Shown here piece after piece: positions 1 through 25,694 of a stretch of 64,000 nt of DNA; position 1 is the stretch's first letter, and the number at the start of each line of letters is the position of its first letter. The position numbers and the translations under genes were made by a program. The stretch is from a virus (lineage: Duplodnaviria > Caudoviricetes). The stretch lies in the IMG/VR virus record IMGVR_UViG_3300011429_000087, positions 32,001-96,000 of that record. One strand, 5' to 3'. The notes below the pieces were generated by a model that worked only from the letters and a program-made list of their open reading frames with translations, did not search any database and was not told where the DNA came from.

Positions 1-882
1 GATGAGCACGCTCACGAACTCTATACGGATATGCAAGTTGGTCAAGTATGGCAATCAGCATTTAGACAGTGGATTTATGAATCTGGTGTTCCAGTGGATG
101 GTTCATTAATTAAAGCAAATCCACAGGTTGCCTCTGGCGTTTATGTTCAGGGGGCTTTTAGACGCCCAGACGATACAACATTTGCCCACAAGATAGATTT
201 TATTAATGGGCGTGTTATCTTTGATCAGCCATTACCTTTAGATACACAGGTTCATGCCGATTTTACTTATCGGCATGTGCGTGTTGGATTCGAACATCAT
301 TTTAATCAACAATTTGATGATGGCTATATTGAGAGCAAGTATGCTACTAATCCCGAAACGTCTATGCAACTTGTTTATCCATCTGGCACAAAACAGCCTT
401 TTCCTGCGGTCTTCATAGAACTGGACGGACGGACACAAAAGCCATATGAAATAGGAAATAGATCACTTAAGATAACCGACGAAGTGAAATTACATATTTG
501 GGCTTTAGATGATATTCAGAGAGATAATATTGTGGATATTTTAACCGCCCAGGAACGCAAGTCCATTCCTCTTATTAATTTTAATATTGCCCCACTTCCA
601 TTATCTGGCATTTTTAATGAGATATCGCCAGAATATATTGCATACCAGGATCTTTTAAGAAATAATAGAATAGTAACTACCATAGGATCTGGCACACCTC
701 TTAGATATATGTCTTATATTGATAAGACTGAAGTTCAGAATGAGGCACCCGTTCAGGAGTATGAAAGAGCATTGGTAACATTTCATGTAACCACATATCT
801 TAATGCTCCGATTACCCCTCTTGGGACGATTTTTGCCCCGATCAGCAATATCCCGGTTCTTGGGGACCAAGTTTTTTCTTAG
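1..882 (+). CDS. Putative tail terminator/completion protein (5'-truncated)
   Basis: Frame is open from base 1. Lies directly upstream of the tail tube gene. PFPAVFIE...LHIWALDDIQRDNIVDIL resembles tail-terminator proteins. Confidence 0.55.
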   Translation, partial: DEHAHELYTDMQVGQVWQSAFRQWIYESGVPVDGSLIKANPQVASGVYVQGAFRRPDDTTFAHKIDFINGRVIFDQPLPLDTQVHADFTYRHVRVGFEHHFNQQFDDGYIESKYATNPETSMQLVYPSGTKQPFPAVFIELDGRTQKPYEIGNRSLKITDEVKLHIWALDDIQRDNIVDILTAQERKSIPLINFNIAPLPLSGIFNEISPEYIAYQDLLRNNRIVTTIGSGTPLRYMSYIDKTEVQNEAPVQEYERALVTFHVTTYLNAPITPLGTIFAPISNIPVLGDQVFS

Positions 883-893
883 TGTATTAAATT
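879..893 (+). promoter_or_regulatory. Candidate late promoter motif TTAGTGTATTAAATT (copy 1)
   Basis: Exact 15-mer also at 13586 and 24330. Overlaps the TAG stop of the upstream gene and precedes the tail tube gene. Followed by the hairpin TAGGGATA/TATCCCTA (898-927). Confidence 0.65.
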
Positions 894-960
894 GAGGTAG
901 GGATACCATAAACATCTCATATCCCTAATACGCTAGCGAATTAAAAGACAGGAGAATTAG

Positions 961-2364
961 ATGGTTAACAATCGTGTATTTTGGGCTATCGAACAGGTAG
1001 CCATTAAAGCTAATAGTATAGCGGCTACTGGTGAAGTTGCACCGGTTAATAGCCGTCACTTTATCACTGGCGGGCTAGCATCAGGCGTCAATGAAGTAGG
1101 CAACCGATGGGAAGTGCCGCGTGGCCTTCAATCCGCCGGTATGACCACAACCTTTAACCTCGAACAAGTCTTCCAGCTTGGTCAGGTAGAAATCTATGAA
1201 AATTCAGAACGTCAACCTGACATCGAAATGACCTTAAGCAAGGCAATCGACGGATCAAAGCCTCTATTTTTCATGGTAACTGATCCAAATCAAGCTAATG
1301 ATATCGTTGCTCGTACCCAGAGTTATAAAGTAGACGTTGCGATGGAAATTTACCCGGACTCACAGTTCCGAGCAACTGGCCGTCCGATCTCAATCGTTAC
1401 TGCATCTGGAATGGTTATTTCAAACATCTCCTACACGTTCCCAGTTGATGGTTTCGTTACAGAAGACGTAACTCTAGTCGGCAACGATAAGATTTGGGGT
1501 GCCTTAATTAATATCTCTGGTCAGTCTCTAGGTAATGGTGGTAATGAGCCACTAGTTAACTTCGGAAATGATCAGAATGGTGGCAATCCAAATGCTCCAG
1601 AAGGACTACCTTCGGGCGTATTCGGACACGACGGCACAACTTCCGCTCTTGTTGAGGGTGGAGCGTTCGAACTTGCCGGTGGATCAGATGTAAATGGTGT
1701 GATCATCGTAGGATCTGGTATCCAGCGAAGAGAAGAGGTAGAAATTCGCCGAAGCGTTCTTCCTCGCGACATTCCTGGCATTAAGCCATTTATTAGTTCT
1801 GGAATTAACGCGGCATTTGTCAACGGTGGATTCGGAGCACAGGGCCCAGGCACCGCTTCCGCATTCACTCAAACAATTGGTGACGCGAATACAGACTTTA
1901 TTCAGGAACACGTTCAGACGATTACGGTTTCAGTCGATCTTGGACGAGACGACATCTTCGAGCTTGGTTCAAAGCGACCATTCGCCAAGACTGTATCTTT
2001 CCCAATCGAAGTAACAGCTTCAGTTGAAGTTATCACGGCCCAGGGCGATCTAGTAGATGCAACTGCTGGTATCGACTGTGGACCAGATAATACCGTTGCA
2101 AATAACACAATGATTATTAGAACGTGCGACGGTCTGCAAGTAGACCTCGGAGACGGCATGAGACTTCAGGGCGTTGACGTTGGCGGTGGAGACGCTGGTG
2201 GTGACAACATGACAGTGACCTACAACTTCGTAGGATACAACGTGTTCAACGTCAGCCATGACTTCTTCCAGCCGAATCACAGAGTGGTCGTGTTCGAGAC
2301 AGGCAATAGCAGATTCAACGTTGGCGGTGAGTCATTCAAGAGAACTGACCTCGGAATCTTCTAA
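961..2364 (+). CDS. Major tail tube protein (internally duplicated tube domain)
   Basis: Strong RBS (CAGGAG), own promoter motif and terminator, position before chaperones and tape measure. Beta-rich, with two related Q-S/T...F-x-LG...P segments. Confidence 0.75.
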   Translation: MVNNRVFWAIEQVAIKANSIAATGEVAPVNSRHFITGGLASGVNEVGNRWEVPRGLQSAGMTTTFNLEQVFQLGQVEIYENSERQPDIEMTLSKAIDGSKPLFFMVTDPNQANDIVARTQSYKVDVAMEIYPDSQFRATGRPISIVTASGMVISNISYTFPVDGFVTEDVTLVGNDKIWGALINISGQSLGNGGNEPLVNFGNDQNGGNPNAPEGLPSGVFGHDGTTSALVEGGAFELAGGSDVNGVIIVGSGIQRREEVEIRRSVLPRDIPGIKPFISSGINAAFVNGGFGAQGPGTASAFTQTIGDANTDFIQEHVQTITVSVDLGRDDIFELGSKRPFAKTVSFPIEVTASVEVITAQGDLVDATAGIDCGPDNTVANNTMIIRTCDGLQVDLGDGMRLQGVDVGGGDAGGDNMTVTYNFVGYNVFNVSHDFFQPNHRVVVFETGNSRFNVGGESFKRTDLGIF

Positions 2365-2374
2365 GAATTCATCG

Positions 2375-2432
2375 TCTGAACTATATGTTCAGATCCCCCG
2401 GGGGCCATTGGCCCCCGGGAAGTTTTTATTTT
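2375..2432 (+). terminator. Rho-independent terminator after tail tube gene
   Basis: Hairpin TCTGAAC/GTTCAGA (2375-2393), then 10-bp GC stem CCCGGGGGCC-ATT-GGCCCCCGGG (2397-2419), followed by AAGTTTTTATTTT. Confidence 0.85.
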
Positions 2433-2442
2433 GGTGCTAGGT

Positions 2443-4977: not shown

Positions 4978-5503
4978 CGGAGGCATGGGCCTTGAAGGTA
5001 TCGCCCAAACTCCGTTTTATCAGTTTATAACTAGTTCGGAGGGTTTAAGTGAATTAGGTGTAGAAGCCACGGAACCTCCAAAACTATTAAAGGCATACCG
5101 CGACACATTCCGAGTAGATGTTAGAGGCACGGCCCTTTCTTTCTATTTCGGCAACGTTTATAATCTCATTAGAGCTACGCCACATCCTGCTAGTGGAACG
5201 GGCCAACTTAAAATCGGATCGTGGCTACGGTGGGCTGTAGACGGCCAGAAGGTGAATGACAGAGGTTTCGTGCCACGCAACAGATTGCCAAAAGTTGATA
5301 AGCTGCGTAAACGAATCAGGTTAGGTGATCCATTAGGCGGTTTAATGTTACCAGCCAATAGATTTGGTTCAACTGGCAGATGGGAATTACCGATTGTTTT
5401 CAGAAACTATGCTGATGAGTGGTTCGTTAAAAATAAGGCACGATTAGAAGAATTAATTGTTAAATATATCGAGTTTATCTTTGCAAGTGAGCTAATGAAG
5501 TAA
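4844..5503 (+). CDS. Hypothetical virion morphogenesis (tail completion/neck-like) protein
   Basis: 219-aa basic ORF coupled (TAATG) to the tape measure gene. Function inferred from position only. Confidence 0.45.
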   Translation: MATRWKVDLVRGQSGLKGPIAEAWKRTLLRLEPLMSGPILEALINGGMGLEGIAQTPFYQFITSSEGLSELGVEATEPPKLLKAYRDTFRVDVRGTALSFYFGNVYNLIRATPHPASGTGQLKIGSWLRWAVDGQKVNDRGFVPRNRLPKVDKLRKRIRLGDPLGGLMLPANRFGSTGRWELPIVFRNYADEWFVKNKARLEELIVKYIEFIFASELMK

Positions 5504-8500
5504 TGGCAAGAATTCAATTAGAAGGTATTCTAAGGCTTATAGATGTCGATATTAATCCGGCAATCTTTCAGAAGATTAGTCGTGCGGCCAGTACCTTGCC
5601 CGGAGCATTTAAACAGACCGGACAGGCGGTTGGACAAGCCAATAGTAATGTTCAGACTTTTAATGCCACTCTTGGCAAAACAAACCAGCAATTAAGTCTC
5701 GGTAATGCATTTGCTCAGAAATTCTTGCAGCGAATGGCTCAATTCGCCATCTTACTTCCTATCTTTGCGACTCTTAATAAGGCTATTCAGGGCGGCGTTA
5801 AATTTATATCTGAATTCGAATCAGAATTATTAAACATCGTTAGAATTGATCCGAAAGAGGCGGTCAACAGAATACAAGAAATTTCAGATGCCGCACTAGA
5901 TATTGGGGCTCGATTCGGCGTATCAGCGATCGAGGTCATTAAGAGCGTGAAGGTCTTCGTACAAGCCGGTGAAACAATCAGTTCTGCTCTTGACAAAGCT
6001 AAAGTGGCTGCGATTGCTACCCAAGTAAGTACATTGGATCTTGCACAGGCACAAGAATTACTCATCGGCGTGCAGAAGCAATTCGCAAGTTCTGCTCTTA
6101 GTAATATAGAAATCCTAGATAAGATTTCAAAGGTAGAAGACTTAACCGCGTCAGATGCCCAAGACATGGCCGACGCATTCGTGGCCGGCGGTAACGCCCT
6201 TGCGTTCGCCACTAAGGATTTCGATTATGCCATTGCGTCTATTGCAGCCTTAAGAGAACAAACTAGAAAAAGTGGCAAGGAACTTGGTACATTCGCAAAA
6301 ACTGTTATTCCAAGATTGTTTGCTGGTGGAGAAAGCAGAACAGCACTAGAACAATTGGGCGTAAGCGTTCAAGATCAGGCCGGAGAACTTCGTCCTTTTC
6401 AGGCCGTAGTTGAAGATACTGCTAAAGCATTTCATGGTTTGACAGAGGCGGAACAGGTCAATGCCGCCAAGACCATTGCTGGCGTTCGTCAATTCGAAAC
6501 ATTCTTAGCTCTTTTGAAATCAACCAATAGAGCGGCAGAAGTATATGCCGGATCATTAAATGCCGACGGAACGGCTGCTCGTAAATTACAGGTTGTACAA
6601 GAAAAACTGTCGTATCAAGTAGATCAGACGGTAGCTGAATTCCAGAAATTAGCTGTCGAACTAGGTAATGCCGGTGTGTTAGATTTCTTCAAAGATGCAT
6701 TAAAGGCCGCTCGTGGGTTTGCGATGGGATTAGAAGAGGCCGTTAAGATTGCTAAAACTTTGGGTGTGGCTATTGCCCCATTAATTGGGGTTGGTGCATT
6801 CAAGTTAGGACAGATCGCGTTCGGAGGGCGAGGCGGTGGACAAGGTACTACCGGCGGTGCTCAACAGGGCGGTGGTGGCAAATTCAATTTCGTTGGTTCG
6901 CCATCTGCTCAGGGTGGTGGCCCTCTAACGCGGGGCGTATCAGGCAAGGAATTCGCGGCTTTCCAGGCTGCCTCTATAGCGGCGGGATTGGCACTTAAAG
7001 GATTAGAAGTTGCATTTAAAGATGCGACTGGCACAATAGCCGAAGTTGGCAGTGCATTAAATAGCGTTTTAGGAGCCGCACAAACGGGATTTCAAGTAGC
7101 AGCCTTGTTGGGGCCAAAGGCTGGATTAATGGTTGGAACCTTCCAGCTTGTCATTGATGCAGTTGCTAAGATTACAGACGCGATCGACCAGAGAAAGAAG
7201 GATCTTGAACAGATCGGAGAAGATAATGCCCATCTTAAGGCTTCTAAAAATCTTGCCTTGGATGCCGCTGCTGGTGAAATATTGACTAAACCAATTCTTG
7301 ATGCTATGCAGAAAGCCCTCGTTAAGAGTGGCGGCGTTATTAATGATGCATTCTTTAAGACAATTAACACGGCAGTTAAACAAACTGTCGGTAATAAAGA
7401 ATTAGTAAAACAGGCTGGTTTAGGGCCAGAAACTAGCAAGGCCGATCTAACAGATGTATTAGCTAATCCACAATTCATCAAAAATATTGCTGCTGCAAAT
7501 CCTCAGTTTGAAAGACTCAACAAGGCTATCGAAGCCGGTATGAGTCTGTCTATGCAACAGACCGCCCTATTTAGAGACTTAGCTTCTGCTGGAGGAGCGG
7601 CAGATATAGCCGTTCGAGGACTAGTAGATACTCTAAAAGCGGTCAAAGAGCGAGATCAGTTGCGTCAGCAAGAGGCCGCCATTAATGAATTAATTTCTCA
7701 ACGAACTCAATTATTACGCACAGATGTTCCACTTTTTCAGACAGAAATAGAACAGTTACAGGAGCGTCAAAAGGCTCTTGGGAAATTCTTAGACGTTGCA
7801 TCTGCCGCCAGGAAAGACTTCGAAAATCTAGCCGCCACAAATCCAAGCGAACTAGGATTCGTTGGACAAAGTGCTCAGGCATCAGATGCCGCAAAGAATT
7901 TCTTGAGCCAAATTGAAACCGCCTTCAATAATGCCGGTAAAAATGGTAATTTTAATCTAACGAAAGTGATTGACGATATTGTTAAGAAAACGAATATAGA
8001 TACTACCTTTGGCGGTGAAGATCAGGTGCCCATAAGTGAAGCCGAGCAGACTAAGATGACGAAGGCCGCAATGGAATTCGTCTCTGTGCTTCAGAAGGGA
8101 CTTTCCGAGGATATCGAACGTGCTAAAGTTGATTTTGATTTAAGACAGGCTCTTGGTAAACAGGCCGCAGAATTAGTCAAGGTTCAAAAAGATATACAAG
8201 AGGCTACTAAGGGTGCCCTCGATAATGCAGAACTAGCCTTGATTAAACTTGGTGTTGACGCTAATTTAAGTGGTGAAGATATTGCCAATCTTGGTTCATT
8301 AACTACAGAGCAATTTAATGAAATCGTAAAGAGTGGCACCGGAGCCAACGAGTCCCTACAGAATCTCATTAATACATTTGCCGGGGATAATCTAAAACAG
8401 GCTCAACAGGCGGCACGCATATCTTCTGAAACTTTTGCTAAAGAATTAGATGTTCTTGATGAAAAAATTCAGGCCGTATCTAATACTATTGCAAATACTC

Positions 8501-10554: not shown

Positions 10555-10557
10555 TCA

Positions 10558-12611: not shown

Positions 12612-12622
12612 GCAAAAGTTAA

Positions 12623-12790: not shown

Positions 12791-12800
12791 GGAGAGTAGT

Positions 12801-13589: not shown

Positions 13590-13600
13590 TGTATTAAATT
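13586..13600 (+). promoter_or_regulatory. Candidate late promoter motif TTAGTGTATTAAATT (copy 2)
   Basis: Exact repeat overlapping the TAG stop at 13587-13589. Followed by the hairpin GATGACC/GGTCATC (13601-13620). Confidence 0.65.
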
Positions 13601-13639
13601 GATGACCGATCGTGGTCATCTTTTCAAAGGGAGATTAAA

Positions 13640-13825: not shown

Positions 13826-13860
13826 TAAGCTAGTTTAGTATCTTAAATAGTCTGTCCTTT

Positions 13861-13890
13861 GGGCCCGCACTCTATGCAGGGTGCGGGCCT
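13861..13890 (+). terminator. Terminator-like hairpin
   Basis: 13-bp stem GGGCCCGCACTCT-ATGC-AGGGTGCGGGCCT. The U-tract is weak. Confidence 0.6.
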
Positions 13891-13957
13891 AATTCTATTA
13901 GTGTAATTTTGTAATGGGCGTGGCACTTTGTCTAGCCCGGGTGATAGGGACAGTAAA

Positions 13958-14431
13958 ATGGCTAGTTACATCTTCGAACACGAAGGGAATCGTGGTTTAT
14001 TAAAACTAACGACCCATAATGGCAAAGATATTTTAATTGAATGCCATAAGAACGACCACCAGATTTTTAAAATCGGTGGTACTGCCGCAGATGCCGTTTT
14101 AACTTTTCCAGGACTTATCCTCGGTATCTCTGAGGACCGTCAGTCCGCTACGCTACAAAGTAGTCAAAATACATCCATGTTATTTGATGGTAAATTATAT
14201 GACCCAAATCTAGTCATGGGTGATATGGCTTTTGCTATTGAATACTATGATGTTAATATGGAGGGCAAGCCCCCCTCTTGGTTAATTGTCCCCGCACCAA
14301 TCGAGCAATCTCGTATTCTGTTCATTAATATTGAATGCGTCGATGCCGGTCATAATTTATCTAGACGTTATCGTGTTAGTCCATTTACTGGCGAATGCCG
14401 TATGATGGAGTTTAATAATGGCACTGAATAA
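13958..14431 (+). CDS. Hypothetical protein
   Basis: ATG 13958 preferred over TTG 13928. Overlaps the start of the next gene. Preceded by a degenerate motif copy TTAGTGTAATTTT (13898-13910). Confidence 0.65.
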   Translation: MASYIFEHEGNRGLLKLTTHNGKDILIECHKNDHQIFKIGGTAADAVLTFPGLILGISEDRQSATLQSSQNTSMLFDGKLYDPNLVMGDMAFAIEYYDVNMEGKPPSWLIVPAPIEQSRILFINIECVDAGHNLSRRYRVSPFTGECRMMEFNNGTE

Positions 14432-17400
14432 CGACCCACACCTACAAATCTTCAGCCCATTTAATGAAGCGAGTGGTGCTCCTTTATGGAAGAATTATGC
14501 CCCTTCATATTGGAATGGTCGTGGCAGTGGTATTAGTTTTGATTGGCACGCTCAAATTACAAATGCCGATACCACAGAGCCACAGTCTTGTTGGCCTGGA
14601 GCAGATGCTATATTTATGCCGGAGTCTGGCACCACGCATCGTGGATATCGTGTTCAAGGAACATCCGATATTCAGGCTGCCGCAAATAATACTGCCGCTA
14701 AAAAAGCTCTCGTTATTGGCGGCGGAGCATTTCAGGCAAGACAGATTCTTAATACGCCTCCAGTTGCACAAAGTGGATTTACGCTTGGATTTTGGGTTAG
14801 TCCTCAATCAAATGGTTATATCAAAGAGCAGGGCGGAACATTAGAAACGTTATCTCGTACTAATGCTATCTTTTCTAAAGGGGCTACTAATGATGCCTTG
14901 TATGTAGGCGTATCGGGTGCGATGCATCAAGGGGCTCAATTTGATCAAGATATTTTTGCTTCCGGCTTACAAGCATTCGTCACTGTTATATCGGCCAGTT
15001 TACCCGGCACAAGATTAAGTACGCCTATTGAATCAGGTGCCTACACTCATATAACTATGAGCTATAGATTTACGGCTGCCAATAGTGCGGCGGTTGCATT
15101 ATATAAAAATGGTAGACTTGCTGCCAGCGGCACGAACGTCGCAAACCAACTAAGTGCTGTTAACGCTCAGTTCAACGATAGACCATTAACTATAGGCGGA
15201 TCTATTATTACTAATGCGGCGGGCACAGATCGTTATGAAGACGCGACAGGATTCGGACATCTTATTTCTGGAGTTTACGCTTATGATCGTGTGCTCCATG
15301 AAGGAGAAATCTTACAACTCCATAATCAGGGCGGTTTACAAGTAGACTCCACATTAGTTTATCCACTTTATCAAGCCGTACCGATTACAGATACTTCAAT
15401 AGTTACTTATGCTCCGTTTATTAGTCCGGGCTATATTGATGCGAGTAGACATCACTTAAATCTATTTAGCAGCCAGGACGAAGGAGCGGTTGGTGCTTAT
15501 ATTATCTGTCCAGGTCCGTTCGGACGAGCAATGCCATTTAATGATACTACAAATGCTATTGATATGGCAATCGCTACACCAAGTGGTACATTAGTTGAGC
15601 TTCTATATGGCGGCAATGGTAGTTTTACAATTGCCGGTTGGTTCGCAATGGATAGTGCGGCAGGGGTCACTTCTACCACATACGACACGACAACTCTGTT
15701 CTCCTTTGGATCAATCGGAGCCACTGGGGAATTTGCTCCAGCTCGTCAAACTGGCGGATTTCAAGTATCCGCCTCTGGTGCTGCCAATAACGTTAGAATT
15801 TCGGCCAGATTATACGATGGCGGATTAGTAACAGTAGCAAATACTAAAGTTCTGACACATCCAGAGGTTGACTTATTTCTCTCCATGTTCCGCCATGTTG
15901 CTCTGACATATGATGAACAGACGTTTGGAATCGCATTATATGTAGATGGATTATTGGCTCAAAGTGGGACGATGCCAAATTCAATGCTTGCCCAAATGAG
16001 AAGACTTGCTGGAAGTGGATATCCACTCACGTTCCTTAATGGCGTACCAAACGAAACGACAGACGTTTTTAGTAATAACGCCGGAGACGACTGTGCTGTC
16101 GGTGAAATATTTATTGCTAATCGTCCACTTTTACCAGCAGAAATCAGATATATTGCCGAGAGTGGTATTAATATTAGTCCGCTTTATTATTCAGTTAATG
16201 ATCCTAGATTAAGAGGATATTGGGATTGTACCGGATCTGGTACAAACGACATGATTGTGCCAGACACGTGCCTTATTTTCTCAAGCGGCGGTATTCCGGG
16301 ACATCTTACGCAGATAGTGGGCGATCTTATTTGGGATATAGTAGAAACCTCTTTTAATAAAACACAGCTTGCGAGAATAGATAGAATAAGTCAATCAAGA
16401 CATCCAGATCGAGGCATTACGTCTGGCACTTGGACCGTGATGGGTGCCTCCGATGGTATCCCACATACCGCAAGCACAACTGGCGAATGGAGTAGAACTT
16501 CGTCTACTGACTATTGCCAACGATATAGGATGTATTCGGACGAACGCGATATTCGTGCTCCCGCACATATTAATGAATATATCATTGGATATAATGTGAC
16601 GCCAAGCGGAATTATTCCACCAAATCCGCTTGGAATTGCTGGTCGTGAAACCAATTCTTTGTTAACATACTTTGGCGAGCCATCCGCAACAGATGCGTTT
16701 TGTTCATATCTAACTACCGACGCCGCTTCTGGATTATTAATCGTATTTCAAACAAATGACGGCACAACATTATTTGCACCTTTAGCCTCTGGAGTGATTC
16801 CATTCGGTGTGCAAAGCCGAATTATGTTCCATGCCAAACCAATGTTGCCATTCAATAATGATACTGTCACTCCAATTGAGGTTACGCTTTATGTGAATGG
16901 CAACCCAATTCAAAGATCAGCTTTTGCCAGTAATGCCGCTGCCGGGCCCGCCGCGAGACTATACGATTTAGACGCTAATGGTGCGTCCGATAACTGGACC
17001 CTACAAATCGGCGGTCGAGCCAGCCAAGACAGTTTTGGTTCTCAATCAACAGCTCAGGACGGTCTTGGCGAAATATATATGAATGGCATTTTCGTCATGG
17101 TGGGTTCATTTAGTAGTAATGACCTTCTAAGATTGGCAGCTTCCGGTATTAATTCTAGCAAGACAATTGCTAATTATCCAAATAGTTTAAATACTTCTAC
17201 AGTAACTATTGCGGATAGTGCCCTTCAGGGATATTGGAGATTTAGTGGGCCAGATGCAGGATCGGGAATCACTGATTTAAGTGCAAAAGCAAATCATCTT
17301 AACGCCGTAGCTCGATCAATAGGTCCAGGAGTTAACTCTGCCTTTTTACTTAGATATCTGCCTCTCGGATTCGTTCACGCATCAATTCCGACACAGGCAA

Positions 17401-19100
17401 GCGGTATTACATATGTTGCCGGTGCTCTCGGCATTGCTTCTCCTCCGCCATTTGCTATTTCTGGTACTATGTTTCAAATACCGCAAAGTGGATTTTCGGT
17501 AGGATTTTGGGTTGCTCCAAGAGAGAACGTTGCCGCTGCCGATGCCGTAACATTGTTATCATATGGTATCGTTCCAAGTAGCGTCACAAGTATAGTATTT
17601 ACCGATTCGTCTTGGGCAATTGAGATAGATGATGATAATAATATTACCATGCTATTATCTCAAGATGGAAAGATGAAGTTATCAAATGCTGCTACTCCAT
17701 CCGCATCACAAACAAGATGTTCCATATTAAGAACTGCAATTTCAGATCCGGGACCAGATATAGAAATCTTTAGAAGAGGCTTTTTTAATCCGGGCCATAT
17801 AGATGGACTAGAACATATTGTATTTACTTATCAGCATTCGGAAGATCCTAGTATCAGTGGAATTATTAAAGGATATTTAAACGGCGAAAAAGTTGCCGCA
17901 ATGACCGTACCTGCCAGTGGATTCCATCAGCCGCTTGCACAAGAAACAAGATTTATTAGTTTTATGATTCCCCAGACCGGGATTTGGGCGTTCGGAACTG
18001 CACGCGGTGCCTTAAATAGTATTATGAGTGACGTATTTTATTTCTCTCGTCCGATTGGGGAGGAAGAAGTAAGATTTATTACATTTAATGGCATTAGTTC
18101 TCCAACAACCACAGTAGGATCTGGAGCAATCGGAGGTTATATCCAAGGACTGGCTGGTGCTGATGGAAGTATAGGTGGTTATATAGTCGGCATAGATACC
18201 GTTTCTGGAGTAATCGGTGGATATATGCCGGGGGCATTTGCTAGCTCCGGTGCCATTGGAGGATATGTTTCTTCAATTGGTATTCCTTCTGGAATAATCG
18301 GCGGATACATGAGATCCAATGTTGGTGCGTCTGGTATGATCGGTGGTTATATAGCAAGTAAAATAACTTCTTCTGGAGTAATTGGCGGATGGCAGCGTGG
18401 TGCAATTAGAAACGTATTCTATTTCGACGCAGCATTCGCTGTAGAGTTTTTTGCAAATGCGGACTTTGATGCTAAGTTTAGAGTCAATCAGACTAATAGT
18501 GCCGACTTCGATGCTAAACTAGTTGTATTTCAGGCGGAACAGCCACCAGATATTGATATTATTGTACCAAGTACGACATCGACTGGTACGGCAATTCCTT
18601 GGAACCAGTATTTTATAGGTAGTGGTAGGGCGGTTCAAGGCAAGAGCATCGTCCAAGCAAAATTCTCATTCAGTGACTTTACAGCACCAGTGACAGTTGC
18701 TGAAAGTGGTAATAATTTATATCCAATATCTCACACATTTGCACAGAGCGGATTATATGTTGTTAGATTCTCTGTGATTGACTCGAACGGTCAACATAGT
18801 TCTGCGACACGCATTATTGATTTATCTAGTGGCGTATCACCAGTTAATATTGCTTTATCAGGATTCCCGACCGCCGGATTAGCACCGTTACCAGTTGACT
18901 TTAATCAGATAGTAATATCTGTACCAAATAATGTGGCAATCATTGCTCAATTACTTAGTTTTGATGATGGACAAGAGAGTATAATTAATAATCCAAACCA
19001 TATCTACACAGAACCGGGTATCTATAGACCCATCTGGATCATTAGAGATTCCAGAGGAGTAATATGGAGCGATAGTTTGGTGGCCGGAGTAAATAACTAA
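14418..19100 (+). CDS. Large tail fibre/adhesin: ~4 LamG (ConA-like) domains, 14-aa repeat stalk, 2 C-terminal PKD domains
   Basis: LamG hallmarks (FTLGFWV, HITMSY/HVALTY/HIVFTY, LYKNG/LYVDG/YLNG, YDRVLHEGEI, GYWRF). PKD hallmarks (SHTFAQSGLYVVRF, GLAPLPVDF..FDDG..NPNHIYTEPGIY). Confidence 0.8.
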   Translation: MALNNDPHLQIFSPFNEASGAPLWKNYAPSYWNGRGSGISFDWHAQITNADTTEPQSCWPGADAIFMPESGTTHRGYRVQGTSDIQAAANNTAAKKALVIGGGAFQARQILNTPPVAQSGFTLGFWVSPQSNGYIKEQGGTLETLSRTNAIFSKGATNDALYVGVSGAMHQGAQFDQDIFASGLQAFVTVISASLPGTRLSTPIESGAYTHITMSYRFTAANSAAVALYKNGRLAASGTNVANQLSAVNAQFNDRPLTIGGSIITNAAGTDRYEDATGFGHLISGVYAYDRVLHEGEILQLHNQGGLQVDSTLVYPLYQAVPITDTSIVTYAPFISPGYIDASRHHLNLFSSQDEGAVGAYIICPGPFGRAMPFNDTTNAIDMAIATPSGTLVELLYGGNGSFTIAGWFAMDSAAGVTSTTYDTTTLFSFGSIGATGEFAPARQTGGFQVSASGAANNVRISARLYDGGLVTVANTKVLTHPEVDLFLSMFRHVALTYDEQTFGIALYVDGLLAQSGTMPNSMLAQMRRLAGSGYPLTFLNGVPNETTDVFSNNAGDDCAVGEIFIANRPLLPAEIRYIAESGINISPLYYSVNDPRLRGYWDCTGSGTNDMIVPDTCLIFSSGGIPGHLTQIVGDLIWDIVETSFNKTQLARIDRISQSRHPDRGITSGTWTVMGASDGIPHTASTTGEWSRTSSTDYCQRYRMYSDERDIRAPAHINEYIIGYNVTPSGIIPPNPLGIAGRETNSLLTYFGEPSATDAFCSYLTTDAASGLLIVFQTNDGTTLFAPLASGVIPFGVQSRIMFHAKPMLPFNNDTVTPIEVTLYVNGNPIQRSAFASNAAAGPAARLYDLDANGASDNWTLQIGGRASQDSFGSQSTAQDGLGEIYMNGIFVMVGSFSSNDLLRLAASGINSSKTIANYPNSLNTSTVTIADSALQGYWRFSGPDAGSGITDLSAKANHLNAVARSIGPGVNSAFLLRYLPLGFVHASIPTQASGITYVAGALGIASPPPFAISGTMFQIPQSGFSVGFWVAPRENVAAADAVTLLSYGIVPSSVTSIVFTDSSWAIEIDDDNNITMLLSQDGKMKLSNAATPSASQTRCSILRTAISDPGPDIEIFRRGFFNPGHIDGLEHIVFTYQHSEDPSISGIIKGYLNGEKVAAMTVPASGFHQPLAQETRFISFMIPQTGIWAFGTARGALNSIMSDVFYFSRPIGEEEVRFITFNGISSPTTTVGSGAIGGYIQGLAGADGSIGGYIVGIDTVSGVIGGYMPGAFASSGAIGGYVSSIGIPSGIIGGYMRSNVGASGMIGGYIASKITSSGVIGGWQRGAIRNVFYFDAAFAVEFFANADFDAKFRVNQTNSADFDAKLVVFQAEQPPDIDIIVPSTTSTGTAIPWNQYFIGSGRAVQGKSIVQAKFSFSDFTAPVTVAESGNNLYPISHTFAQSGLYVVRFSVIDSNGQHSSATRIIDLSSGVSPVNIALSGFPTAGLAPLPVDFNQIVISVPNNVAIIAQLLSFDDGQESIINNPNHIYTEPGIYRPIWIIRDSRGVIWSDSLVAGVNN
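18120..18392 (+). repeat. Seven 42-nt (14-aa) degenerate tandem repeats, consensus SG[AVIM]IGGY
   Basis: SGAIGGY, DGSIGGY, SGVIGGY, SGAIGGY, SGIIGGY, SGMIGGY, SGVIGGW at exact 14-aa spacing. The periodicity continues as FDAA/ADFDAK to ~18520. Confidence 0.9.
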
Positions 19101-22100
19101 TGGCAAGTTCAGAGTTTATTACAGTTAGTGGGTCAATAGTTCCTATGAATGGAATTGCTTGGCCCTCTGGATTATTTCCTTCGGGCGTCCCGGGACATGA
19201 CCTATCTGCATTTCTAGCATCTTTGAATGCCGGATTTGGTTTTAATCTTACGCCACATACATTTCAGATGGAATGGATTCCTACCGGAGATGCTGGATCT
19301 TTTCATGGAGCTTCAGGACAATTACCGCCGATCGGCAGCAATTTTGAACTTTATATTGGCGAGTTCTTTTTAAGAGGGTTTATTACCCATGCCGATTATA
19401 CAAGTAGTAAAGACGGTACAATTATTAATATCTCGGTAGAAGATTATCGCAAAATTTTACAGAAAGTTAAGATACATACGGAAGATTTGGGCGAAACCGT
19501 TCCATCAGGAGTTGTTTCTGTCGCACGGGCGTTTCGCAAGGTTAATGGCCTCTATAATATAGATGGTACGCCATCAGATCCTCTTGTAAAAGAATATATG
19601 AAGATTCTTGAGATCGGGGCCACATATTCTCAAATTCTTGCCGCCATCGACTATACATATAATGAGGGTCGGTCCTCTCTTCCTGTTTCAGAACTTCCTA
19701 GCAAAACCAAGTTACAGGCTAATCTCGGTCCAGACTTAGATAATCTTCGTTGGCAGTTTAACCTATCTACCGTTGACGAGGTGATGAGCCGAATTCTAGC
19801 AGATTCCGGTTTCGACTGGTATTGGAATATGAGTGCGGCCCAATTAGCCCTCATTAATAAAAAGAATATTTTTGATGTTACCGAAAGTGAAATTTTGGAT
19901 CTTGTTGGTTCGTTCGGTAGTGCCAGTGGACTAAATGAAACAGTACAAATTGGTTTCGGACAGGATATAGTTTCTGAACCAACTAGATTTAGATTGATGG
20001 GCGGACACCAAGAGGGAATTATCAATTCGGAACTTTTAAGCCCAATCGACGGCCTGGACACTTCGGCATTAGATGGTAAAATCGTCTTTAAGAAGGCGTG
20101 GGACCAATTAACTATTGGGTTCTATGATGCCGATGGCTTCTATCGTACTTATATCCCCTCTGAAAAAGAACTTCAACTTTCAATGGCCGGAATTGAACAG
20201 TGGTCATATTTCAAGAAGTTTCAAAACGCAAGTACGGTCGCATATCCTCCGGGTTTTGGTTTGGCGGCAGATGCCGGATCAATTGCGGCTCAGGATGGCT
20301 CATTCCAAAGTCGTCTCGATCCTTTGATGCCATTGGCTGGAGAAGCCACAAGTGCTGGACAGTCTGGAATTAGAATTATTTCAAACAGACGAGATCAGGA
20401 TCATAACTGGACGCTTGACTTTTTTAATCGAATCAGAAATCATGCATCTAGACATTATGGTAGAACCTATATTGCCAGTGGCATTATGTTCTCAAATGCT
20501 TCTGGAATGTTTAGGCCCGTAGAAGCAGCCTGGGCCAATGTAGAAAATCAAATTCATGGCGGCACCCTTTCTCCGTCTGGTTCTACCAGCGGCCTCTTCG
20601 TAGAGGATTATGAAATTAATAGAAGATTGGGACCAATTAGTCCATTCTTAACTGATGACTTTAGAATTGCGGCCCATTGCGTACTTCCTGAGAATACAGT
20701 ATATGGCCCATTAGGAGATGACGTACCGGCGTCATTTGCAAACTGGACTGAAGATGCTCCCCCATTTAATCCTTCTGGAGACGGCAGACATTATATTCCT
20801 GTACAGATAGCAATCGTCGGACAAAGAGTAATTGACCCACGCAGTGATGACTTATATTCATTTGAGAGATATCCTGAAGGGACATTATTGTGCCAATTAC
20901 CAATTAATGCTGGTCCTGATACTGGCCTAGTAACCGATTCGATTATTAAAAATCTCGAAACTCTAATTAGTACAAGAGATAGACTAAATGGATCTGGTGT
21001 CATTGATATCGTTGATCCTTCGATCATCTTAAATGTATATTCAGAATTAAGTGGAGTAGCAATTCCTGTTGAAGCAAGAACCCGCTATGGACAGTTATAT
21101 CCCACTACATGGATCTCTGGTGTTCTCAACCCACGTACACATGAGGAAGTACAACTAGATGATCAGTTCGTGCCTTGGGCATTCTCTCCGCAGGGCAGTA
21201 AAACATCGCTAGATATTATGACTGATAGGGCAATGTCTAGAGTCATTGGTAAAGTGGTTCGTAGTGACACTTCCAGATATGCAGATTTTACTCAGGTCGG
21301 ACTGCCACTATTATCATTTGACTCATTTGCCAATCAGCAAGTTAATGCGGACGGTCTTTATGGGGCGATCACGCACGGCGTCAGTGAATTAAATATTGGG
21401 TTTTCAATTGATGGATTTAATACTCGTTACAAGATTCAGTCTTACTTCCCCAAATTTGGCAAAGAAGCCCCACTTGGAGAGCGAGTTCGAGGAATATTAA
21501 ATGGCATTATTAATCCAATTGACTTTACATTCTTAAAGTTAGGAAATCAAAATCCGCCTCCGCCAAATAATCCATTTATTGACGCTCCTTCTAAGGATAT
21601 ACCGTTCTATTCAACTAGAGAAGAAAGAGCCGTTCGTGTTAGAATCACAGAAGTAAATGACATATTTACTCTTGCCAGTGCTGGCGAACCTTTACAAGAG
21701 AGATATAGGGGTATTGATGCTCATGGTTATAAGAAACCATACGCAAATTCATTCTCTTCTGACCTAGACCAAAAGCGTGGTGCGATCTGTATAGACGGTT
21801 TCTTAAATCTAGATGATTCAGCCATCTATCATACTGACGCATTTGAATTGCCCGGCGGAACTACTATCCTTCGATACTTCACCGGAGGTAGACCGTTTGG
21901 AAATGGAACAATCGTAACGGTTGAACAGATCAGTGCTGACGTTCCGGGCACCTACGACGTTACGATCTTTGATAATAATAATGCAGGTAGAGCGATTCTG
22001 GCCGTGCCGGTTCTTAATGGATCTGTAAATATTGGCGATAGAACAACATTATCTGTTCGTGGAGATGGCTCAGTAACAACTGGTCCAAATATCGGCGGTA

Positions 22101-22396
22101 TCTATATGAATGGTACTTCATTCGGGGCCGGTGTAATTCCCGTTGAGGTTATTTCTGTTATTTCACAAGGAACAATAGCTGCTACCGCAGAATGTAAGGA
22201 ATTAAATTCTAATGGAGTTCTTTCTGATAACGGTTCAACGTTTAGTGGTGTTATTCCTTTACCCTATAGACAATTCGCAACATCTGGCGACAGAGGATTC
22301 TTAGCGACGGCGACAGTTCCTGACGCCACCACCGGCAGCGGCGTCAGTGTTAATTTCGTTGAAATAGTAAAGCCAGCGTTCATTCGTTATAATTAA
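19100..22396 (+). CDS. Putative tail-tip/baseplate hub protein
   Basis: 1098 aa in the tail module. Hub-like segment (GFITHADY...INISVED...VDEVMSRILADSGFDWY). SG-rich. Confidence 0.55.
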   Translation: MASSEFITVSGSIVPMNGIAWPSGLFPSGVPGHDLSAFLASLNAGFGFNLTPHTFQMEWIPTGDAGSFHGASGQLPPIGSNFELYIGEFFLRGFITHADYTSSKDGTIINISVEDYRKILQKVKIHTEDLGETVPSGVVSVARAFRKVNGLYNIDGTPSDPLVKEYMKILEIGATYSQILAAIDYTYNEGRSSLPVSELPSKTKLQANLGPDLDNLRWQFNLSTVDEVMSRILADSGFDWYWNMSAAQLALINKKNIFDVTESEILDLVGSFGSASGLNETVQIGFGQDIVSEPTRFRLMGGHQEGIINSELLSPIDGLDTSALDGKIVFKKAWDQLTIGFYDADGFYRTYIPSEKELQLSMAGIEQWSYFKKFQNASTVAYPPGFGLAADAGSIAAQDGSFQSRLDPLMPLAGEATSAGQSGIRIISNRRDQDHNWTLDFFNRIRNHASRHYGRTYIASGIMFSNASGMFRPVEAAWANVENQIHGGTLSPSGSTSGLFVEDYEINRRLGPISPFLTDDFRIAAHCVLPENTVYGPLGDDVPASFANWTEDAPPFNPSGDGRHYIPVQIAIVGQRVIDPRSDDLYSFERYPEGTLLCQLPINAGPDTGLVTDSIIKNLETLISTRDRLNGSGVIDIVDPSIILNVYSELSGVAIPVEARTRYGQLYPTTWISGVLNPRTHEEVQLDDQFVPWAFSPQGSKTSLDIMTDRAMSRVIGKVVRSDTSRYADFTQVGLPLLSFDSFANQQVNADGLYGAITHGVSELNIGFSIDGFNTRYKIQSYFPKFGKEAPLGERVRGILNGIINPIDFTFLKLGNQNPPPPNNPFIDAPSKDIPFYSTREERAVRVRITEVNDIFTLASAGEPLQERYRGIDAHGYKKPYANSFSSDLDQKRGAICIDGFLNLDDSAIYHTDAFELPGGTTILRYFTGGRPFGNGTIVTVEQISADVPGTYDVTIFDNNNAGRAILAVPVLNGSVNIGDRTTLSVRGDGSVTTGPNIGGIYMNGTSFGAGVIPVEVISVISQGTIAATAECKELNSNGVLSDNGSTFSGVIPLPYRQFATSGDRGFLATATVPDATTGSGVSVNFVEIVKPAFIRYN

Positions 22397-22407
22397 ATGG
22401 ACTAAAA

Positions 22408-24333
22408 ATGACAGTCGCTTCTGGAACCATCCCCTACGCTTACGAAGGACCATATCCATTTAGAGTGCCAGATAACCACTCTATTGGATTTTCTGGTATT
22501 TTATTTGAACAGGCAATGACAGTACATACTGCCGAAATGTTTAGATTCGCCGGTTCTTCAGATGACCCGCCTGTTTTTCTTAAATATTTTACCTTTACTG
22601 GCCCTGCTGAAGACTTTACTCCACGACCAGATGGACACAATTTAGACGGTAGAGTCAATGGTGTCCCGGCTGGAGCGTTTTTCATTGATTATATTTTGGA
22701 TCTCAGAACGTCATTATCAATAGTAAATAGTTTCGCGACATTTGATCTTGCGGGCACACTGCCTGTATTTCTTAAGGATTGGTTGTTGTGGGCTGGTAGT
22801 ACAAGCGGAACGCAGGCCCATTTTACTAGAATACAATTTCCGCTAGGTTCTGATTCTGGCCCCATCTTTAGTGCTGATTTTAATGATCTTGGGGCTAGCG
22901 GTGTTCTTGCCGATATTGATCTTCGAGAAGTTTCATATCAGCCATATTCTAGAATGTCATCTACCAGAACAGTTTCATATCACTTGGCCTCAATTCAATT
23001 ATCTCCTATATTCCCAGGATTTATGTCAACCAATGGAGCGTTCGTCAATCTTAATTCCAGAGAACAGGCGTTATCATTTAGTTCACAGGGTATAACTAGA
23101 ACTTCTGCCGACTTCCAGGCTGGGGATATCATACTTGACGGAGATATGTTCTTCTCAGATACAGATTTCTGTCTTGTGCCGGGCACTGCCACACGAGATA
23201 ATTTAGAAGGTGTTATTACGCATAACGCATATAGTCCGCCATTATCTCTGCCAGGACGTATTTTCTTTGGCAATGCCAATAATACAGTTGATCCTCGGGC
23301 TAAAGCACTTCTAGCACCGCTTGCTCTATCACCTGGAGGTTATGGTATTGGAGCAATTAATAGTTTATCAACCCATCCTGGTCTTGTTGTGCCGTCTGGC
23401 ACATTAAGTTTCAAACCGGCCATTCCTTATGGTGGCGGACATGCCGGTAGCGGTTTCTACGTCTTTGACGAAACGGTATGGATTCAAGATGATGAAATTC
23501 TAAATCCGTCAGGAGCACGACTATTAAATCCATTAACACGTAGTCAATTCGTATGGTTCAGAATTGCAGATCAGACAAATGCGTTTGATGATTTAGGTGG
23601 CAATCACGCTTGGAGTACCCAAAATATGGTTGGTTTGATGGATAATGGCACAAACTACGTTAAGATGTCTACTATGTTAGCCACGGCTGATGCCGATAGG
23701 AAAATGGGATTTTTCTCATATGATAAATCTACTTTCGATCTTGTCTCGGTAGATCAGCCTGTTCAAGATTGGACTGTATTTACATCATCTATCTCTGTTC
23801 CTGGAGTCCTTGTTCATGCATCATGGAACGGCTCTCAATACTATGCTTATTCAAATAGCGGATCTGGCCCAGCTAGAAATATTTTCATATTTGACAGCGG
23901 GTTTATCTTAGCAGATTCTAAGTTTTACGGAGCCCATACTTTAACATGGATTCAGGGAAATATATTCACTGGTGGTGATTTCGGTGGTGTAGGAGACACC
24001 ATGTATGAATTAATTATTGATCCTGATACTGGCAATGATACGGTAACAGATACAGGTATAGCTTATACTGTTGATATTACTGTTGCAGCATGGCCCGCAA
24101 GTCATTCAAGTTTAGTAACAGAAATTTATCCACCTAAGAAAATTACAGGATCTCCACATTTCGCGGACGGTACTTGGATGCTAGCCGTAAATGCCGCAAA
24201 TGTTGTAGTTATGTTTAGAGGCGAATTATCTGGTAGTTCTATCGTCCCACAAGAGGGATTTATTATAAGTTCATTAAGTTCGGCCGCCCCCGCCCGAGTC
24301 GGCTACGAATTCGTACATGGAACATTCACTTAG
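22408..24333 (+). CDS. Putative tail-associated/receptor-binding protein
   Basis: 641 aa, beta-rich, at the end of the tail module. SG-rich. Confidence 0.5.
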   Translation: MTVASGTIPYAYEGPYPFRVPDNHSIGFSGILFEQAMTVHTAEMFRFAGSSDDPPVFLKYFTFTGPAEDFTPRPDGHNLDGRVNGVPAGAFFIDYILDLRTSLSIVNSFATFDLAGTLPVFLKDWLLWAGSTSGTQAHFTRIQFPLGSDSGPIFSADFNDLGASGVLADIDLREVSYQPYSRMSSTRTVSYHLASIQLSPIFPGFMSTNGAFVNLNSREQALSFSSQGITRTSADFQAGDIILDGDMFFSDTDFCLVPGTATRDNLEGVITHNAYSPPLSLPGRIFFGNANNTVDPRAKALLAPLALSPGGYGIGAINSLSTHPGLVVPSGTLSFKPAIPYGGGHAGSGFYVFDETVWIQDDEILNPSGARLLNPLTRSQFVWFRIADQTNAFDDLGGNHAWSTQNMVGLMDNGTNYVKMSTMLATADADRKMGFFSYDKSTFDLVSVDQPVQDWTVFTSSISVPGVLVHASWNGSQYYAYSNSGSGPARNIFIFDSGFILADSKFYGAHTLTWIQGNIFTGGDFGGVGDTMYELIIDPDTGNDTVTDTGIAYTVDITVAAWPASHSSLVTEIYPPKKITGSPHFADGTWMLAVNAANVVVMFRGELSGSSIVPQEGFIISSLSSAAPARVGYEFVHGTFT

Positions 24334-24344
24334 TGTATTAAATT
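24330..24344 (+). promoter_or_regulatory. Candidate late promoter motif TTAGTGTATTAAATT (copy 3)
   Basis: Exact repeat overlapping the TAG stop at 24331-24333. Confidence 0.65.
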
Positions 24345-24439
24345 AACGCTGGATGCCAGATGGCGTCTTATGGGACACAGCGTTCGGACTTTTACCGTCT
24401 GATAGCCAAGACTTATTATGTCTTGGCTATCATTTTTTT
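24345..24439 (+). ncRNA. Candidate ~95-nt structured small RNA or leader
   Basis: Bounded by the promoter motif and a terminator. Stems AACGCTG/CAGCGTT and GATGCC/GGCGTC, with alternative pairing CAGATGG/CCGTCTG. Confidence 0.35.
24400..24439 (+). terminator. Rho-independent terminator
   Basis: Perfect 13-bp stem TGATAGCCAAGAC/GTCTTGGCTATCA followed by T7. Confidence 0.85.
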
Positions 24440-24451
24440 GGTAGATTATGT

Positions 24452-25015
24452 ATGAATGTTTTAATTAATAAAACTTGTCTAGAATGTATAAATACATTTG
24501 AAACGATTGCTACTAATAGTAAAAAATCACGTAAACTATGTCGCGATTGTTATTTTCGTAAAAGACGAGAAGTCATGATAAAAACTAATAAAAATAGAGT
24601 GAAGAATAAATCTATTCAGTGTCAAAAATGTTTAAGTATATTTTTGGCAGCTAAAAAGAATGCTAAATGCTGTCCAACTTGTAGACAACAAAATGATAGT
24701 AGAAAGAGTCCTACATATTTAAAAAGTGAACATTATCGTTTAAAGTCTATTGAATGGAGTCATAATCACAGGGCCAGAGCAAAAGGTTCTCTATCTAAAT
24801 TTCATAAAAAGTATATTTCTCAATTACTTGCGGATTATAATCATCAGTGTGTTTATTGTGGATCTGATAAAAAATTAACTGTAGACCATTTAATTCCAAT
24901 AGTTAGGGGTGGCTCTAATGACTATAATAATTTAACGTTAGCCTGTTTATCTTGCAATTCGGCAAAACGAGACAAAATGCCATTAAACTTTCTTTGTTAT
25001 CGAATCTCAAAATAG
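24452..25015 (+). CDS. Free-standing HNH endonuclease with N-terminal Zn fingers
   Basis: CVYCG...TVDHLIPIVRGGSNDYNNLTLACLSCNSAK and several CxxC pairs. AT-rich. The 24353 start runs through the terminator, so ATG 24452 is preferred. Confidence 0.88.
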   Translation: MNVLINKTCLECINTFETIATNSKKSRKLCRDCYFRKRREVMIKTNKNRVKNKSIQCQKCLSIFLAAKKNAKCCPTCRQQNDSRKSPTYLKSEHYRLKSIEWSHNHRARAKGSLSKFHKKYISQLLADYNHQCVYCGSDKKLTVDHLIPIVRGGSNDYNNLTLACLSCNSAKRDKMPLNFLCYRISK

Positions 25016-25037
25016 TCGCAAGTTCTAGGAGTATAAT

Positions 25038-25694
25038 ATGGTTTCAGGAGTTCGTTTTACAGCTTGTTCTGGAGCTATGGGTGGTCAACCATCCAATAGA
25101 GCCTTTATTAACGCTCTTGAGATTTTTAATATGCAGCCCGGCGACACTACGTCGCCATTACGTTTAGGCTTCTTCGGTGCCGGGGGAGCCCCCAACGCGG
25201 CCGTGATCGTCGGAGAATATCAGGATCGTACCCACCGTACTAATCATAACGGGAGCGATCTAGGCGTCTTTATTAACCAGAAGTTCTCGTCTTCTACAGT
25301 GGCAATTATTTCTGGAGTAACCTTCCCGAATATGACGGATGTTCCGGGCAATTCAGGCACATTGTTATGCCGGTTCACGGAGCCGACCGCCCAACAGGTC
25401 CAAACTCAGAACGCCACATTCCGTGCCATTTCATTTAACTCATCTTCTGGTGTGCCAAATATTGATAGTATTCCTGCCAATATTAATATACAGGCTTTCG
25501 AAGTTAAGAATACAGTAGGAGGAACTGGTGACGGAAGCTGGACAGATATTACAAGTGGTAGTAATGCCCTTGCACTAGACGCACAGGCCGCCACCGCGAG
25601 CGTCCACGACTTTATCGTTGGCGTGTCTGCCTCACCAACAACCACTGGAACTAATCGAGATTTCGGCTTTATGTTAAGGCTAGAATATTTCTAA
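25038..25694 (+). CDS. Putative structural protein
   Basis: AGGAG RBS. Gly/Ser/Thr-rich beta protein with six SG motifs. Confidence 0.6.
   Translation: MVSGVRFTACSGAMGGQPSNRAFINALEIFNMQPGDTTSPLRLGFFGAGGAPNAAVIVGEYQDRTHRTNHNGSDLGVFINQKFSSSTVAIISGVTFPNMTDVPGNSGTLLCRFTEPTAQQVQTQNATFRAISFNSSSGVPNIDSIPANINIQAFEVKNTVGGTGDGSWTDITSGSNALALDAQAATASVHDFIVGVSASPTTTGTNRDFGFMLRLEYF

Follow-up and report, generated by a model that had tools for sequence, protein, structure and literature searches.

A selected Ser-Gly motif in the tail-tip and fibre proteins of an uncultured tailed phage, a possible acceptor for O-glycosylation by phage-encoded enzymes

Introduction

Why should the proteins at the host-contacting end of a phage tail carry far more Ser-Gly (SG) dipeptides than their amino acid composition predicts? 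The question is raised by a 64,000-nucleotide stretch of a tailed phage (Duplodnaviria; Caudoviricetes), bases 32001-96000 of the 164.5 kilobase (kb) virus record IMGVR_UViG_3300011429_000087 in IMG/VR (estimated completeness ~80%), hereafter the window, along which a tail module is followed by a replication block and then, from 37 kb on, by a glycan cluster, all large open reading frames (ORFs) being on the + strand. An original prediction had taken SG for a proteoglycan-like attachment site spread across the outer virion proteins, read by an initiating glycosyltransferase (GT) of that cluster and giving the virion a dense sugar coat. Here we show that [A/P]-Ser-Gly-[V/I/L/F/T/A] is a selected, Ser-specific, lineage-specific linear motif of the predicted tail-tip hub, the small baseplate proteins and the fibres, and that what it marks is the part of the tail that recognises the host, not the virion surface generally. 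Ser-specific O-glycosylation by the soluble GTs of the phage would be the best single explanation of the motif, a reading that we hold to be plausible, if somewhat short of probable. A literature search returned no paper describing a Ser-Gly O-glycosylation sequon in bacteria or phages; to our knowledge, virion glycosylation by phage enzymes has been demonstrated chemically in mycobacteriophages only, and we know of no sequence rule for it.

Results

Expected SG counts were obtained for each protein from 1000 composition-preserving shuffles. The genes concerned are listed below with observed against expected SG, in window coordinates unless stated otherwise.

1..882, + strand, pre-tail protein, 342 amino acids (aa) with an upstream start at genome 31854; SG 5 against 0.8 in the 283-aa form (z 4.9)
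961..2364, + strand, major tail protein (tube or sheath); SG 6 against 3.8, z 1.2, not significant
5503..10554, + strand, tape measure (PF10145 PhageMin_Tail), the internal negative control; SG 6 against 7.8
10558..12054, + strand, predicted tail-tip/baseplate hub, 498 aa, tandem tube-fold domains; SG 13 against 3.7, z 5.3
12054..12611, + strand, small tail-tip protein; SG 4 against 1.5, orthologues at an observed/expected ratio (O/E) of 2.0-3.3
12981..13589, + strand, small tail-tip protein; SG 6 against 2.3, orthologues at O/E 2.6-4.1
14418..19100, + strand, fibre/baseplate protein, 1560 aa; SG 39 (the top count) against 16.3, z 6.4, with 12 GS
19100..22396, + strand, tail protein, 1098 aa; SG 19 against 9.4, z 3.2
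22408..24333, + strand, tail protein, 641 aa, moderately enriched; SG 12 against 6.4, z 2.4
25038..25694, + strand, tail protein, 218 aa; SG 6 against 2.3, orthologues 7 against 2.2-2.7
genome 107227-110370, outside the window and just downstream of the glycan cluster, three adjacent fibre-like proteins of 393, 255 and 387 aa; SG 19 against 5.7, 6 against 2.2 and 12 against 4.3

Pooled over the nine window proteins that the original prediction had named (those above from the window, the tape measure apart), SG occurred 110 times against 46.5 expected (O/E 2.36, z 9.3), the highest of all 400 dipeptides. Across the 197 ORFs of the genome the excess was limited to 11 proteins (142 against 55.5, 2.56x, z 11.6, Poisson P 2e-22), which form two blocks, the tail genes and the three fibre-like genes downstream of the glycan cluster (together 37 SG against ~12 expected), and the remaining 186 ORFs held 175 SG against 173.7 (1.01). 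As had been predicted, the excess goes beyond composition: it survives the shuffles, SG is the top dipeptide and the reversed pair GS stays at baseline (1.12 in the nine proteins, 1.15 in the 11). Turn-type pairs are not co-enriched either, NG (1.21 and 1.33) and DG (1.26 and 1.17) standing at the same level as in non-virion proteins (1.23 and 1.22, respectively), and TG was low (0.63 and 0.77). By gene start, the GS counts were 12 (14418), 4 (10558), 14 (19100), 8 (22408), 3 (12981), 3 (25038), 2 (12054), 4 (961) and 2 (31). The earlier hand counts of SG and GS proved exact throughout, including 6 SG in the tape measure, none in the 2431 chaperone or in RecA and 4 in DnaE.

The enrichment claimed for the named proteins held for most of them; the major tail protein fell away (z 1.2), its orthologues in the relatives L002 and L007 likewise lacking a significant excess. 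Three small tail proteins taken individually reached p ~0.02-0.04. The pre-tail protein remained enriched as a full ORF (6 against 1.3), as did its L007 orthologue (5 against 1.4), and orthologues of the 1560-aa fibre, which carries two ConA-like lectin (Laminin_G_3) and two PKD domains by Pfam, held 27-49 SG each (z 4.5-7.3). Paralogy and repeats cannot account for the signal: the two small tail-tip proteins are paralogues (29% identical) and a 14-aa tandem repeat at aa 1235-1319 of the 1560-aa fibre supplies only 6 sites, and after removal of two paralogous pairs and of internal repeats SG still stood at 116 against 45.4 (z 10.5). The three fibre-like proteins outside the window contain short fibre repeats (type S-G-I-N-G-I-T-V), and an Ig-like domain at the C-terminus is common to the first two.

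The residue after SG was V, I, L, F, T or A at 108 of the 142 sites (76%; background 0.43, p 1e-15) and the residue before it A or P at 45 (background 0.136, p 3e-8), a flank pattern that agrees with the one first described, and charged residues within three positions on either side were depleted (8.2% against a background of 14.8%). The proposed likeness to a proteoglycan site does not extend beyond a Ser-specific acceptor with Gly at +1, that is, the dipeptide only. The animal xylosylation site, used by a GT14 xylosyltransferase, needs acidic flanks, whereas those of the phage sites are A/P and hydrophobic, and no GT14-type domain was present among the scanned proteins of the glycan cluster. 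Each of the six Ser and four Gly codons is in use at SG sites, so the signal lies at the level of protein and a DNA-level origin is ruled out; avoidance of deamidation, with SG in place of NG, is likewise ruled out, as NG and DG are not depleted. Among the codons, TCT was over-used at the SG serines of the nine window proteins (51/110, 46%, against 143/466, 31%, of all Ser), a bias that may reflect selection for translational accuracy.

The division between exposed and unexposed proteins, on which the idea of a sugar-coated virion was built, turned out to be inaccurate. The major capsid protein, encoded at genome 26239-27270 and recognised by PHROG (major head protein) and by PDB 6wkk (E 7e-9), has no SG where 1.3 are expected, and the portal has none where 2.8 are, the capsid genes being a check that the original prediction had itself proposed; among the enriched proteins, the one of 498 aa is an inner hub. 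In the tape measure the residue after SG is polar or charged (K, K, G, E, T, R, as previously listed), and the tape measures of all relatives have SG at an O/E of no more than 1.2. The excess is found only in the tail-tip, baseplate and fibre set and in one pre-tail protein. Because the capsid protein, portal and major tail protein show no excess and the hub does not face outward, what the motif marks is the end of the tail that recognises the host. Structural proteins of T4 and lambda, pooled, gave an SG O/E of 1.25, with no single protein above z 2.2.

Most of the tail proteins gave no match in PHROG, Pfam or PDB sequence searches. For the 498-aa protein, which has 253 representative homologues, an AlphaFold (AF2) model (predicted local distance difference test, pLDDT, 86) shows tandem tail-tube-fold domains, and since its Foldseek matches are lambda V, the lambda tail tip, the Mu baseplate and SPP1 Dit, the model identifies it as a predicted tail-tip or baseplate hub. 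The 13 SG sites of this model lie in mixed contexts, namely loops before helices, loops before strands, hairpins, the inside of a long helix and a disordered loop, several of them 1-3 residues ahead of a strand or helix; structural context comes from the hub alone, a model of residues 1-1190 of the fibre encoded at 14418 (from a 7-sequence alignment) having a mean pLDDT of 30. About seven SG columns of the hub are kept within its clade (one conserved site, at hub residue 367, reads L-P-S-G-I), and in 44 distant homologues of the same fold the residue in these columns is mostly K at q61 and q104, D at q98 and Q at q319, which indicates that the fold does not require the SG sites and that those positions tolerate surface-type residues. 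Only q252 is SG family-wide, being so in 16 of the 44 distant homologues. The residues that usually replace the Ser of SG are D, N, A and T. Over the hub family as a whole the SG O/E ranges from 0 to 4.35, with 22 of 129 members at 2.5 or above.

The SG serines are under strong purifying selection. In comparison with a 79%-identical relative (L002), 77 of 78 SG serines were kept (99%) against 170 of 253 other serines (67%; Fisher 1.6e-10) and 44 of 50 N or D residues before G (88%; p 0.014 against SG Ser), and against L011 (33% overall identity) 55% of SG serines were retained, as opposed to 30% of other serines and 19% of N/D before G. Syntenic modules were found whose hubs are 85, 61, 46 and 39% identical, and each of them shows a coordinated SG excess, with SG at or below expectation in the tape measures and chaperones. 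In seven relatives (L002, L005, L007, L011, L018, L019 and L021) every protein after the tape measure was enriched, and independent lineages were SG-rich at other positions (3-4x), with 80 SG against 27.1 over five tail proteins in L023 and 41 against 12.2 in L025. Conversely, an SG-poor hub had SG-poor neighbours in L008 and L027, and L010 was mixed. Because non-homologous neighbours are SG-rich or SG-poor together, SG richness is a per-genome trait common to unrelated tail proteins, which a trans-acting reader predicts and which is hard to derive from the needs of the fold alone. Single-protein scans of viral contigs with P0038, P0002 and P0065 gave no matches. A 783-aa protein within the SG-rich tail module of the genome G007 (L023:15042-17393) is SG-depleted, with 1 SG against 4.8 expected, so the trait passes over particular tail proteins.

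The glycan cluster of the window and its GT genes (gene starts where a single position is given) are as follows.

37059..64000, + strand, glycan cluster with at least nine GTs, seven methyltransferases (five SAM-MT, two FkbM-type), a HAD protein, a sugar-1-P nucleotidyltransferase and an Fcl-like epimerase/reductase (Pfam, NCBIfam)
37059..38870, + strand, GT1 (GT-B) + DUF4214 glycosyltransferase, first gene of the cluster (PF00534 + PF13946)
37059, 39537, 44162 and 47189, GT1-type enzymes
40792, 43314 and 51254, GT2 enzymes
50397 and 52946, Glyco_trans_1_2 enzymes

The GT-domain proteins span 37-54 kb. NCBIfam models describe the sugar genes as an Fcl-like GDP-fucose synthase, a generic sugar-1-P nucleotidyltransferase and a beta-PGM-family HAD, and the HddC model reached only 19.9 bits on the nucleotidyltransferase against a cut-off of 300; these assignments point to a hexose and a 6-deoxyhexose, not to ADP-heptose. 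No protein of the cluster is multi-transmembrane, each having at most one hydrophobic segment, and no flippase or polymerase is among them. A Bac_transf-type priming transferase was not found in the search, nor was a thymidylate-synthase-type hydroxymethylase gene, in a search whose positive control responded. This pattern fits soluble enzymes working on a cytoplasmic acceptor. A search of the 164.5 kb for GT9 (PF01075) returned nothing at E<=0.1 with a responsive positive control; a Tet_JBP search gave no match, its positive control being silent as well. Every long SG-rich record carries a very large soluble GT and methyltransferase cluster of this kind without an evident alternative acceptor. 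The cluster invoked by the original prediction is thus real as a soluble set of GTs, methyltransferases and sugar-nucleotide enzymes; what did not carry over is a firm tie to one initiating GT, for which a relative, G008, provides a counter-example.

The gene of the GT1+DUF4214 enzyme is a conserved core gene. It has 1064 database matches, the best 120 of which show no less than 53% identity along most of their length and come from contigs as long as 183 kb, and homologues are present in G001, G003, G005, G006, G007 and G008. In G007 a 656-aa open frame homologous to it adjoins a GT9-family gene (a match of 35-36 bits), both directly after the SG-rich tail module. Several homologues carry intein/LAGLIDADG inserts (P0164, P0171, P0188, P0202 and P0219, in 950-1014 aa forms, and G005:C1:67271-70210). 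Insertions of this kind are usually the sign of an essential gene under strong conservation, and a glycosyltransferase is an uncommon place for them.

Other genes of the cluster include an IMPDH/GMP-reductase-type protein (45150-46982) with an HNH_3 domain (residues 188-226) in an N-terminal extension ahead of the IMPDH domain (275-598), and a LAGLIDADG-type homing endonuclease gene (53914-54687) directly 3' of a Glyco_trans_1_2 gene (52946-53917). A 465-aa protein (41841-43238) belongs to no Pfam or NCBIfam family; ESM Atlas gives leads, weak at 0.84-0.87, to glycoside-hydrolase-like families of the alpha/alpha-toroid type (PcRGLX, GH127, GH15), and the protein may be a glycan-processing enzyme. 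In the tail module, an HNH endonuclease gene (24353-25015) sits between two SG-rich genes, and the tape measure gene is directly preceded by two overlapping ORFs (4153-4977 and 4844-5503), which may encode a pair of tail-assembly chaperones by means of a programmed frameshift. The replication block contains RecA, DnaB, primase, a PD-(D/E)XK nuclease, ClpP and DnaE, with no DNA-modification enzyme seen; its ClpP-family protease gene (31486-32169) lies away from the head genes.

Discussion

Our data suggest that the motif could serve as an acceptor for Ser-specific O-glycosylation, which would take place in the host cytoplasm, before or during tail assembly, and be carried out by the soluble GTs of the phage. 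The GT1+DUF4214 enzyme (37059-38870), the leading candidate, would perform the protein-directed step, and the remaining GTs and the methyltransferases would lengthen the glycan and methylate it, drawing on hexose and 6-deoxyhexose donors; the target would be the part of the tail that recognises the host, as opposed to the virion as a whole. That an enzyme reads the motif, that this enzyme is a GT, and which GT it is, we infer from the patterns described above.

The nearest mechanistic analogue may be the bacterial autotransporter heptosyltransferases (BAHT; TibC/AAH acting on TibA/AIDA-I). TibC, a soluble GT9 enzyme of the cytoplasm, acts on many serines of a beta-rich adhesin but not on threonines; the mapped sites are N-S-G-G-A-V and T-S-A-A-V, and the genes of enzyme and substrate are neighbours (PMC4358343). 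Here, too, a soluble cytoplasmic GT would act on many serines; at the level of sequence only, the phage sites share the restriction to Ser (SG 2.56x, TG 0.77x) and the succession of small and then hydrophobic residues, and the SG-rich independent lineage G007 has its GT9-family gene directly after the tail module. The phage may work alike, but it is not a member of the BAHT systems, because its 164.5 kb contain no GT9 gene and its sugar genes, of the hexose and 6-deoxyhexose type, offer no ADP-heptose supply. Its substrates, moreover, would be many unrelated tail proteins, whereas those of BAHT are a single beta-helix.

Mycobacteriophages O-glycosylate virion proteins with their own GTs, with glycans at the C-termini of capsid and tail-tube proteins (Freeman et al. 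2023, Cell Host Microbe 31:1216, as presented in PMC12619734). The present phage resembles them in encoding GTs, at least nine, that are proposed to decorate its own structural proteins in the cytoplasm. It differs in that the capsid (0 against 1.3) and major tail protein (6 against 3.8) lack the motif excess, a comparison that concerns the motif and not glycans elsewhere, in that its sites lie within the proteins, distributed among those of the tail tip and the fibres, instead of at C-termini, and in that its cluster is much larger and known from sequence. In chloroviruses and mimiviruses, large virus-encoded sets of GTs, methyltransferases and sugar-nucleotide enzymes are described as building virion glycans without the host secretory machinery (PMC9614988, PMC4691112). 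The phage cluster is a large soluble set of the same composition. Those viruses are eukaryotic, their targets are the major capsid protein or fibrils, and chlorovirus glycans are N-linked at atypical sequons.

Several observations weigh against glycosylation by the phage GTs. The relative G008 has a GT homologue, 38% identical and ending before the DUF4214 region, and yet its tail proteins are mostly SG-neutral (O/E 0.49 for the hub and 0.8-0.95 for the large tail proteins), one 218-aa protein alone being enriched (9 against 2.3); the GT family therefore does not predict SG richness, and as a predictor it was set aside, G008 supplying no clean negative and the SG-poor lineages L008, L010 and L027 having been covered for GT genes over +/-10 kb. 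All positive co-occurrences of the GT with SG richness come from one broad phage group, and neither the major tail protein nor the GT1+DUF4214 enzyme had a relative in a phage genome collection, so there is no cultured relative. Two conserved hub sites lie within a long helix, and the hub is an inner protein. The hydrophobic, charge-poor flanks would equally suit strand-edge structural elements, lambda J and H reach an SG O/E of ~1.9 without known glycosylation, and the capsid protein, portal and major tail protein show no excess, unlike the proven case of the mycobacteriophages.

The main rival explanation, which we judge rather unlikely and yet the most serious, is purely structural: Ser-Gly followed by a beta-branched or hydrophobic residue would be a capping or turn element (an ST-turn, a type I turn with a G1 bulge or a helix N-cap) of beta-rich tail-tip proteins, kept for folding or assembly without modification, the GT cluster acting elsewhere. 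By turn statistics, A or P at -1 followed by Ser, Gly and V, I or T suits a type I turn leading into a strand. The flanks fit this, as do the hub sites placed just ahead of strands or helices, the family-wide SG at q252, the D, N, A and T that usually take the place of Ser, the values of lambda J and H, and an enrichment that skips the capsid and tracks one structural class of proteins. The canonical turn pairs N-G and D-G, however, are only at baseline, and T-G is depleted; SG serines are kept more often than the N/D of N/D-G (99% against 88% in the close relative and 55% against 19% in the distant one), and of the seven hub sites that the clade conserves, six carry something other than SG in distant homologues with that fold. 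The secondary-structure contexts are mixed, with two sites in a helix (in the hub model only), the trait is on in some genomes and off in others, across folds that are unrelated, and the T4 fibres gp37 (0.74) and gp12 (0.43) show no excess.

Next in standing, and a shade less likely, is that the GT cluster has phage DNA or the glycans of the host envelope as its target and is unrelated to the SG motif. Phage GTs often glycosylate DNA or alter the host serotype, both common roles for them as described in PMC12619734 and bioRxiv 10.1101/2023.12.21.572611. The silence of the Tet_JBP control and the ~80% completeness of the record leave some room for a DNA target, against which stand the lack of a thymidylate-synthase-type hydroxymethylase in the search and a replication block without a DNA-modification enzyme; for an envelope target, neither a Bac_transf priming enzyme nor a multi-transmembrane flippase or polymerase was found. 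Furthermore, at least nine GTs and seven methyltransferases far exceed the DNA glycosylation systems known to us.

Least favoured among the readings that accept selection on the motif, and quite improbable in our estimate, is a reader other than a GT: another Ser modification (phosphorylation, acylation or ADP-ribosylation), an assembly chaperone of phage or host, or a host surface partner, the glycan cluster having another target. Selection, Ser specificity, coordination per genome and mixed structural contexts all call for a reader without naming it, and G008 carries the candidate GT family without a general SG excess. Other tail modifications do exist, a mycobacteriophage tail protein being methylated in a host-dependent way according to PMC13445384. 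No kinase, acyltransferase or ADP-ribosyltransferase (ART) gene was seen, however, in the scanned parts of the window, and the large soluble GT and methyltransferase cluster, lacking an evident other acceptor, is found in every long SG-rich record. Chance or a composition artefact, for which one could cite the post hoc choice of SG among 400 dipeptides and the marginal individual values of the smallest proteins, is refuted to the point of being negligible by the Poisson probability of the pooled count and, above all, by an excess that replicates in every orthologous module and in independent lineages and is absent from the 186 other ORFs.

Conclusion

Glycosylation of the motif by the phage GTs brings together a motif on host-contacting proteins and a conserved soluble GT in a concrete hypothesis that can be tested cheaply. 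A wider possibility, which we consider doubtful, is that Ser-Gly-hydrophobic is a general tail-tip sugar code of uncultured phages of 160-185 kb that form a very large group, written by the intein-hosting GT1+DUF4214 enzyme and extended by variable GT/methyltransferase clusters, and so a widespread, unrecognised layer of phage-host interaction. Should glycosylation fail, there would still be a structural signature to explain, one that is lineage-specific and unusually clear. If glycosylation is true, glycosylated tail proteins would become predictable by sequence in thousands of uncultured phages, with a bearing on receptor recognition, on the protection of the tail tip from proteases and host defences, and on tail engineering.

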